From positions 7,973,093-8,037,092 of the forward strand of contig CAVNZM010000004.1 in the NCBI GenBank assembly GCA_963693365.1: DNA of 64,000 nucleotides, read 5' to 3'. Of this stretch, positions 10,154 through 13,100 are shown one piece after another. How positions within the stretch are numbered: position 1 is the first letter of the stretch; each line of letters begins with the position of its first letter. A model generated the notes under the pieces. The model was given only the letters and a program-made list of their open reading frames with translations, was not told the DNA's origin and did no database searches. This DNA is from Amoebidium appalachense (lineage: Eukaryota; Protista; Ichthyosporea). The position numbers and the translations under genes were made by a program.

Positions 10154-13100
10154 AGCACCGAGGGCGGCATTTGCTGCACCGGTTGGGATGGATGACAATG
10201 TGGACTCGGACGGAGAGGCACATATGGAAGTGGGCAGCCCACACAGAGGTTAGTGTGTGCGTGTGTGTGTGTGTGTGTGTGTGTGTGTGTGTGTGTGGGG
10301 GGGGGGGGGGGGGGGGGGGGGGGGGGGGGGGGGGGGGGGGGGGGGGGGGAGAGGGAAGGGGGTGAGTGGGTGGGGGATAGGGGTGGATGTGTGGGTGGGC
10401 GGGCGTGGGAGAATGCTCGAGTATGTGGTGGTGGTGGTAGAGGCGGTGGTGTGTGTGTTTGTGTGTGTGTGTGTGTGTGTGTGTGTGTGTGTGTGTGTGT
10501 GTGTGTGTGTGTGTGGGGTAGTGTGTGGTAGTGTGTGTGTGTGTGCGTGTGCGCGTGCATGTGTGTGTGCGTGTGTGTGTGCGTGTGCGCGCGTGTGCGC
10601 GCGCGTATCTGTGTGTGTTTTGGGGAGAGGGGGGGGGGGGGGGGTAGCTGGATACTGGGTGGTGGTGGTGGCTGGTTGGGGGGGGGGGGGGGGAGAGAGG
10701 GGGGGGGGGGGGGGGGGGCTTGGGTATGGGGTAGTGGTGGTGCTGATGCTGGTGTTGGTGGTGGTGGTGGTGGTGGGGGTTGGGGGGGGAGGGTGGGCAT
10801 TACTCATGCAATGGCTTGTCCAAATTTACCTTTGCATATCGACTACTGCCTGTGAGAGAGGGAAGGAATTTTGGGTGGCGGTTGGTTTTGCTGAGTTGCT
10901 CGGAGAGAGGAGAGAGGAGGGGGAGGGGGATGGGGAGGGGAAGGAGGAGGGCGAGAGGGAGAGGGAGGGGAAGGGAGGGAAAGAGGGAGCGAGGAAGGGA
11001 GGGAGGGAGGGCGGGAGGGCGGGAGGGATGGAGGGAGGGATGGATAGAAGAGAGAGTGTGTGTTAGTGTGTGTGGACGACGAGGGCCGGGCGTGTCTTAT
11101 ATCCATTGGAGATTCTAGTCGGTGCCTGAAGTGATGGTGCATGCTGATGGCAGCAAAACAACCGGACAAACCATCGTTTGCGTGGCAACAAAACAGGCCC
11201 ACCCTGCATAGTTGAGATGGTTGTAGGGAGTTATGTGATCCTTTTTTTTTTTTTTTTGCTGTTTCGAAGATATCAAGTCGCTAACACGCGTTACCAAATT
11301 TTCTCCCTGCCTTGTGGGGAAACCAATCAACAGAACCAGAGGACAAGTGGGGTATGTATTCCCCTCCCTCCCCCCTCCCCCCCCCGTGGGCCCCCCCTGA
11401 GGATGGGCTCTGCTTATTATGCATGCTCTTTATGTATGGTTTGCATTCTGCATCGTGTTATCCGTTGTCCTTGTGTATTTCGTACTTTATGACGCATTCA
11501 AACCCCCCCGCTCCCCCCGCGCCCCTTTTTCTCCCCCCTCCCCCCCAGTTCCGCCCTAGTAAGCGTGTTACTACCCTGCGGCGTGGGTCAAATCTCATAT
11601 TTTCCCCTCTGATTGCGAATTCTGCGGCCTTCGGGACTTAATTCTTTTCAGCTGGTGTAGTATGTTAGCCAGGGAAGTATCGACTTAGGTATCGACGGGG
11701 GAGCTTCCTAGAAGCCCCGTCTCCTGAGTTCCTATCTATATTTTTCTTGCTTCTGCTTACTGCTGCAACTTTAACCCCCGGCCTTTCCCACTGCCCTTGC
11801 CTGCATAAGCAACCCTGCTCGTCTCTGATCAAGACGGGTGACCTACTCATGTTCAAGTGAAACAGTATCTGAGTTGGGTTTCGTTAACGAGGGGAATAGG
11901 TCGAAACTCGGGTACTGTGGATGACGTGGGCCCCCCCTGAGGATGGGCTCTGCTTATTATGCATCCTCTTTATGTATGGCTTGCATTCTGCATCGTGTTA
12001 TCCGTTTGTTCTTGTGTACTTCGTACTTTTTGACGCATTCAAAACCCCCCTCCCCCCCCTCCCCCCCTCCCGCGCTCTTCCCCCCCTATTGATGGCGAGT
12101 TCTGCTTGTAGAGCAAACTCTTAATGCCTTTTTTGGAATCTGTATTTTGTTGTCCGCGTTGAGGTGTGCTTGTTTTCTTTGCTTTTAGTCTGCTTGCAGA
12201 TTTTGTAGACTCTGCGTTCTTAGATTGCTGCTCCTTGAACAACCCTGCTCGTCTTTGGTGGCCAAGACGGGTGGACTCGCCTATTGCTGTTGAAACAAAG
12301 TATGGGTTGGGAACCACGCGCGAGAGGTTAAACGAAACCCATGCTTTTGTGGAGGCATAGGAACCCCCCTGATGATGGGCTCTGTTCACGTGTCTTCTGC
12401 CTGCACACCTAAATTGTTTGATTTTGGATTTCCCACTTTTGTGACGTTTTGTTGTTGCTCTTTGTTTTCTCCTCCATATTTCCAACCCTCTAACACATAC
12501 ATCACCCCCCTCCCCCCCCCCCCCCCCCCCCCCCCCCCCCCCCCTCCTTCCCCCCTCTCGCCCGCCCCTCTCCCACCCATCCACCCACCCTTCTACACAC
12601 ATTCTTGCTCCGTTCCTTGCCCTTCCGCTCCTTCATGTGTTTTCCTCCTTGCCTTGCTACGCTGCTCCCCTTACACCACGGTCACACGGGAGAACTATCA
12701 ACCAAACAAAACACAACATACTATCCTTGGCAGTCCGACCACCGAAATTTCACCCATTTCCTCACAACTATCTCACGTCTATCCACGCTATCCACAGAGC
12801 AACGGGGTCTGCATGACGAAGTTGAGATAGCCTTTAGTGAAATTCTGTCCAGCTACGAGAGCCAGGGGGATGCCGACGTCTACCATCTGTGTGAGCGCAT
12901 GCACGAGGTTTTGCAGCAGGTCCTGAATGAGGTTGCTGCAAATCCGGGCCGGTACGCTGTGGTACGTGACCCGGCCCGATTCGATGTTTCTGTGACCCGA
13001 AGCCTCTCCGTAAGCTATTATCTTCATAGATGTTCGTCATGTAGATGCGCGTCCAAGTGTGATTGCTACATCTCGCTCGTATTTGTATTCTTTAGATTTT

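Follow-up and report, generated by a model that had tools for sequence, protein, structure and literature searches.

The intact copies of a mobile repeat family in Amoebidium appalachense probably encode self-cleaving hammerhead ribozymes with a split core, as judged from their sequences. Rather than following CUGANGA, the strand that opens stem II on its 5' side is found about 100 nt farther upstream, before the block that carries the GUU triplet (block S). Five full copies of the motif, in three subfamilies (A, D, and E), and five 5'-truncated copies were found in the window (here, the whole 64-kb stretch of DNA analyzed), which also holds genes in short exons (Nup107, a PF08613 cyclin, and ORC1/Cdc6) as well as numerous (C)n and (CA)n tracts.

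Copies and conserved helices

The full copies are A1 (6985-7145, plus strand; carrier repeat, 6863-7258), D1 (11805-11957, plus; carrier, 11549-12044), A2 (18797-18957, plus; carrier, 18675-19069), D38 (38548-38396, minus; carrier, 38309-38725), and the focal copy E (12236-12388, plus). The motif sequences of D1 and D38 do not differ, which leaves four distinct sequences in three subfamilies. A first-pass annotation had described four nested helices (P0 to P3) that are kept while the sequence changes, and all four are present, with the letters as quoted, in the five full copies; P2 of copy E contains a bulged U (CCUAU-U-GCU, 12280-12288/12354-12361), and its P3 is 11 bp long. The description was nonetheless incomplete, missing the hammerhead core and two pseudoknotted helices.

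In copy E, the 5' strand of the closing helix P0 (12236-12241) pairs with 12383-12388 and carries two compensatory changes relative to A and D, and the P1 hairpin (12247-12272; strands 12247-12255 and 12264-12272) has an invariant stem and a variable loop. A further short helix, P0', is predicted between CCC (12243-12245) and GGG (12377-12379), the latter directly after CUGAUGA-U; because it is invariant, it shows no covariation in the window.

Covariation was counted over 39 pair positions in A1, A2, D1, and E, that is, in three subfamilies (four distinct sequences): 23 were invariant, 3 had changed on one side, and 10 had changed on both sides. Nine of these 10 double changes were clean, the remaining one lying in stem II of copy E, which is out of register. 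Four positions were broken in some copy (three in stem II of E, one at the outer end of stem I). Departures from Watson-Crick pairing were mostly G-U on the plus strand, as originally noted (14 G-U cells versus 3 A-C cells), and the plus strand is therefore favored as the RNA. The flanks of E proved unalignable to those of A and D, again as first described, both sides scoring at shuffle level (13 to 116 of 200 shuffles reached the score); the motif itself scored above all 200 shuffles (E versus A1 and E versus D1). Between A1 and D1, the 3' tail is common and the 5' flank is not. The folding energy of copy E was unremarkable (z, −0.62), with a minimum free energy (MFE) structure containing P3 alone; the MFE structure of A2 contained all four helices, and that of D an alternative pairing instead.

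Hammerhead core and stems I and III

A complete hammerhead core was present in 5/5 full copies, with a GUU triplet, C-GAAA-C, and CUGANGA standing exactly at helix ends in the order S-G-C. In the usual hammerhead position numbering, C3-U4-G5-A6-N7-G8-A9, G12-A13-A14, A15.1-U16.1, and H17 occur in every full copy, and within CUGANGA only N7 differs between copies (G versus U). In copy E, block S (12297-12311) comprises the 5' strand of stem III (12297-12307), GUU (12306-12308), and the 5' strand of stem I (12309-12311); block G (12333-12347) comprises C11.1 (12333), GAAA (12334-12337), and the 3' strand of stem III (12337-12347); and block C (12366-12376) comprises the 3' strand of stem I (12366-12368), CUGAUGA (12369-12375), and an extra U (12376). 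CUGAGGA of D1 lies at 11937-11943. One related contig has GAUAC where GAAAC is expected.

Helix P3 is stem III (9 to 13 bp; 13 bp in D1) and starts exactly at A15.1-U16.1. Stem I is a pseudoknot of 3 to 4 bp (4 bp in A1), in which the bases after GUU pair with those before CUGANGA; its third pair is compensatory, being A-U in A (GGA/UCC) and G-C in D and E (GGG/CCC). Both stems abut the core in 5/5 full copies. P2 (8 bp, covarying, with changes on both sides at two positions) ties stem I to stem II at their far ends, and the two pseudoknots, absent from the earlier list of helices, are decisive. A small AACC/GGUU hairpin separates stem I from stem II (12312-12329 in E); it is weak (−1.3 to −2.8 kcal/mol) and varies among subfamilies, and one contig variant breaks it.

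A descriptor of the core plus stems matched at the five copies and in 0/100 dinucleotide shuffles of the window. Among 163 control loci preselected for core words, it matched one (L078), which has an upstream stem II of only 4 bp and reads as coding DNA. Rfam returned no hits for the whole window at the gathering threshold, and an E-value scan of 11700-12500 gave four weak hits, none significant. The S-G-C order differs from those of hammerhead types I, II, and III (CGS, GSC, and SCG, without pseudoknots). An upstream UGAAAC in D and E would allow a type II hammerhead to be assembled, but this model was rejected, the sequence being absent from A.

Split stem II

Stem II is the second of the missed pseudoknots and also carries compensatory changes. 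With its upstream partner it forms 5 to 6 bp in 4/5 copies, compared with 1 to 2 bp for the canonical partner after CUGANGA, and in those four copies it abuts G12 with a G-C first pair; 1 bp is formed in focal copy E. The strand pairs read GACCC/GGGUC, GACCU/GGGUC, and GACCUA/UAGGUC, and the fifth pair is C-G in A1 (strands 7022-7027/7084-7089), U-G in A2 (18834-18838/18897-18901), and U-A in D (11840-11845/11897-11902 in D1). In E, the displaced 5' strand is GACUC (12274-12278), with 12274 as the predicted G10.1. The Rfam model Hammerhead_1 independently aligns the same stem II, weakly (E value, 4.8; below threshold). The layout would thus be a CSG/SGC hammerhead that is circularly permuted, with its opening within the core, between A9(-U) and G10.1. 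Cuts are predicted after 7058 in A1, after 11875 in D1, after 18870 in A2, at 38478 in D38, and after 12308 in E.

Variants were read from sequencing runs (e.g., X2) that consist of contigs of uncertain type from the same organism, not raw RNA reads; in X2, the D-family variants 11844 T>C and 11898 A>G had depths of 1419 and 1434. Such nearly equal depths are as expected for a joint compensatory change (U-A to C-G), with linkage on one molecule unproven. Copy E lacks 4 nt of its stem II strand after 12332, which leaves one G-C pair, and all four insertion rows at this position in X2 put letters back. Two of them, GAGU (depth, 135) and AGAGU (16.9), restore a 5-bp GACUC/GAGUC helix; GAUU, the most abundant E variant at 12332 (229.5 of 874.9), leaves stem II with a central mismatch whose rescue would need a change in the upstream strand, none of which was seen in the contigs; the fourth (12.6) differs further. 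Since every insertion restores letters, copy E has, compared with the rest of its family, a 4-nt deletion and also 3 nt inserted in a loop. It is likely, from its sequence, a damaged member that is slow or dead; it may be weak instead of dead because engineered miniribozymes with a single G10.1-C11.1 pair can cleave (PMC544870). D1, D38, A1, and A2 look intact. Another contig variant, 12378 G>A (two contigs per run), changes the GGG after CUGAUGA-U to GAG.

Carrier repeats

Focal copy E sits in a repeat of ~417 nt (12088-12504, plus strand) between two C-runs, the 3' one at 12505-12545; its 3' end is confirmed by a second E tail, and its 5' end is approximate. The repeat is the third unit of a head-to-tail array (D0-D1-E; 11386-12504) that begins with a 5'-truncated D copy directly upstream of D1 (11386-11502, plus; block C and tail only). 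The other truncated copies are of subfamily D (27523-27631, plus), subfamily A (29514-29670, plus), a D-like type (17779-17884, plus; tail only), and subfamily E (36906-36995, minus; tail only, in an intron of the cyclin gene, coordinates by eye). A weak profile match at 36622-36694 was rejected as a copy, being a cyclin exon. In 9/9 carrier copies tested, the flanks were C-rich on both sides (C fraction, 0.50 to 1.00), with a common subfamily-specific 3' point followed by a C-run and with variable 5' starts after a C-run. The insertion hallmarks of Chlamys/Naiad elements were all found, namely, 5' truncation, partial tandem insertion, and a microsatellite target such as (C)n. Family D runs on upstream of the window copy in a deep run contig, so longer copies may exist.

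The motif had first been proposed as an essential cis-element of the transposition intermediate. The data support a conserved RNA-level element of a mobile repeat, on the plus strand, where the C-run marks the 3' end; 5 of 10 copies have lost part or all of it by 5' truncation, and that it is essential for transposition is still something we infer. No reverse transcriptase or GIY-YIG Pfam match was found in the 289 open reading frames scanned, out of 908 stop-to-stop frames of at least 45 amino acids in the window, the copies being short and truncated. Membership among Penelope-like elements is therefore drawn from the insertion pattern and the ribozyme layout, which make the carriers likely members of a Penelope-like (Chlamys/Naiad-type) retroelement family.

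Several other features were observed in the window. In the upstream part of family D (11549-11800) there are a short direct repeat and, near 11697-11720, a hairpin rich in GC; a 58-nt piece recurs at 49079-49136 (minus). A degenerate D-like tail (35432-35523, minus) and a short E-like block C fragment (35827-35854, minus) lie inside or beside the cyclin gene. Right after copy A2 is a tandem repeat of ~65-nt units (19241-20006; 70 to 82% identity), and 43713-44691 holds three diverged copies of another repeat of ~130 nt (AGACGGGT on the minus strand), with no hammerhead core. A single open reading frame of 428 amino acids (49930-51213, minus) has a signal-peptide-like start and repeated cysteine-rich modules, with no Pfam or Atlas match, and a low-complexity frame of 564 amino acids (2699-4390, minus) had no relative found.

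Comparison with known hammerheads and retroelements

Type SGC is a non-circular permutation validated in metatranscriptome RNAs (HRIMA-1 and variants; Eckert et al. 2023, PMC10085705). That paper assumes that the block of CUGANGA plus stem II strand cannot be split, an assumption that is broken by a stem II strand ~100 nt upstream. The motif resembles type SGC in several respects: its blocks run S-G-C, its stems I and II are both pseudoknotted, a U is added after CUGANGA (with this U, CUGAUGAUG matches the type-SGC descriptor), and a helix, P2 here, bridges the distal ends of the two stems in the place of SGC helix 'I'. In type SGC, however, the stem II strand is contiguous with CUGANGA(U) (G-C plus 2 to 6 further pairs, versus 1 to 2 bp here), stem I has 4 to 7 bp in the descriptor (3 to 4 bp here), and the linker between stems I and II has 0 to 8 nt (20 to 27 nt with a hairpin here); the motif also adds helices P0, P0', and P1 and occurs in genomic repeats of a eukaryote, whereas the SGC RNAs come from metatranscriptomes. 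Type CSG (two sequences in the same paper, PMC10085705) has the same cyclic strand order, and opening it between A9 and G10.1 gives the layout here, but its CUGANGA and stem II strand are contiguous.

Naiad and Chlamys Penelope-like elements were reported by Craig et al. 2021 (PMC8557442) as without canonical hammerheads, with eight Naiads flagged 'HHR_half_core', their core halves 35 to 50 nt apart. That spacing resembles the 34 to 36 nt from the G12 region to C3 in the repeats here. Consensus 3' ends of 16/54 Naiad and 7 Chlamys elements (PMC8557442, supplement File S5) were read by eye, not computed, and the sample is not random because it was chosen by motif search and 'HHR_half_core' flags. 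The octopus element Naiad_Ovul and the preceding record (Naiad_Obim by metadata order), which are nearly identical and so count once, have the split layout of the window repeats, with every helix made of different letters. Naiad_Ovul has stem II and stem I of 6 bp each, stem III and a linking helix of 5 bp each, a hairpin directly before G10.1, and a 4-bp helix after CUGAUGA-U. By the same reading, intact type-CSG hammerheads are present in five Naiads (Parc, 3_Nbra, Hcon, Hpol, and Smim, named by order), and 1_Dst (by order; the record before Naiad-2_Dst) has the order S..G..C, with stem III of 8 bp, stem I of 6 bp, an insert of >200 nt, and an imperfect stem II. Naiads 3_Dst and Esco have partial cores. 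Among the 16 Naiads read, six had no hammerhead core, and a full core was not seen in the 3' ends of the 7 Chlamys consensus sequences ((C)n-targeting group).

Like Chlamys and non-autonomous MRC1-type copies, as described in the same paper, the repeats show 5' truncation and partial head-to-tail tandems, with (C)n targets as in Chlamys, and their 3' ends have the form ..CAACCCCC known from Chlamys/Naiad; unlike Chlamys/Naiad, they showed no reverse transcriptase or endonuclease here. Animal non-LTR retrozymes are likewise short non-coding hammerhead repeats, and their mobilization is thought to proceed via Penelope-like elements and circular RNA (bioRxiv 10.64898/2026.07.22.740005). They carry conventional type I hammerheads in tandem monomers, whereas the repeats here have a pseudoknotted split-core form and end in C-runs.

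Proposed mechanism and alternatives

RNA of the repeat is predicted to cleave itself after the GUU triplet, 171 to 202 nt before the C-run. Helices P0, P0', and P1 would clamp the new ends and bring A9 back beside stem II at a compact junction. From a tandem-array transcript, two cuts would release a unit-length RNA whose ends, held by stems III and II, P2, and P0 (~30 bp), would favor circularization; the ends would stay clamped because cleavage leaves the whole of stem I on the 3' product, with the 5' product held by stems III and II, P2, and P0. A reverse transcriptase encoded by an element elsewhere would then copy the RNA into (C)n tracts and generate 5'-truncated copies, priming at nicked targets being the mechanism assumed for insertion. 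Inserted copies keep the tail that one cut would remove, which fits two cuts, circularization, and reverse transcription across the joint. Such a circular-RNA route across the joint has been proposed for retrozymes (bioRxiv 10.64898/2026.07.22.740005).

An alternative partner for the invariant P1 strand is G8-A9-U-G-G-G-C (7 to 11 bp), and nested folding of D prefers this pairing (probability, about 0.6); in E, 12374-12380 can take this role for the P1 5' strand, and G8/A9 of the core would then be sequestered. The choice of two partners may be why P1 is invariant, and in these folding models the alternative may act as an off state. An active state formed by a pseudoknot of ACCC/GGGU plus GCUC/GGGC was set aside because, by geometric reasoning only, A9 would be far from G10.1; it is possible as an off state. 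The fullest version of the proposal, in which a core severed from stem II (outside the six-order scheme) is common to Penelope-like elements, including that of octopus, with P1 as an on/off switch and clamped products that circularize themselves, is speculative, and as a whole we rather doubt it.

Three other readings were weighed. The same ribozyme might be split one pair later, with G10.1 being the G right after CUGANGA-U and pairing with C11.1, so that the upstream strand supplies pairs 10.2 to 10.5 only. CUGANGAUG is an exact match to the SGC descriptor, one G10.1-C11.1 pair suffices in engineered miniribozymes (PMC544870), and both candidate Gs are invariant in 5/5 copies; against this, the upstream G is invariant and lengthens the helix as far as C11.1 in every window copy as well as in the octopus Naiad, and in both lineages P0' provides a separate partner for the G after U, which makes the later split unlikely. 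Another reading concerns cutting itself. The fold could derive from a hammerhead and not cut in cis, serving as a binding or priming signal for reverse transcriptase or cutting only with a protein or a second copy, a reading suggested by the short stem I, the inhibitory alternative pairing in D, a constancy of P1 and P0' greater than base pairing alone would require, and the existence of damaged copies such as E. Yet all catalytic nucleotides are kept across subfamilies with unalignable flanks and also in the unrelated octopus sequence, and a binding site would not need them; we judge this reading to be quite improbable.

Hairpins that arose by chance in a family of repeats (as palindromic DNA or a MITE-like fold), together with accidental core words, would agree with the whole-motif energy of copy E (z, −0.62), with a sample of only three subfamilies, and with the missing Rfam match at the gathering threshold. 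The occurrence of the layout in 0/100 shuffles and 1/163 preselected controls, the ratio of 14 G-U to 3 A-C cells, and covariation in crossing helices nevertheless largely refute this reading, to which we give hardly any credence. The split-core, self-cleaving hammerhead opened between A9(-U) and G10.1 is the reading we prefer for the intact copies.

Range and significance

Pattern scans for relatives gave 44 and 0 hits in viral contigs, 119 of about 130 in metagenomes, and 6 in prokaryote genomes, none with the full layout, and all these matches are treated as chance. Because those collections hold few eukaryote genomes, the scans are no evidence on range. No published split-core hammerhead, nor non-circular hammerheads in retroelements, was found in a literature search that scarcely covered subscription journals. 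If true, the split core is a hammerhead topology excluded by assumption in the published permutation scheme, and it places non-circularly permuted ribozymes in eukaryotic chromosomes, where the literature found does not describe them. It would also help explain why Naiad and Chlamys elements seemed to be without hammerheads, as we propose, because searches required canonical wiring, and it bears on whether Penelope-like elements move via self-cut, circular RNA.
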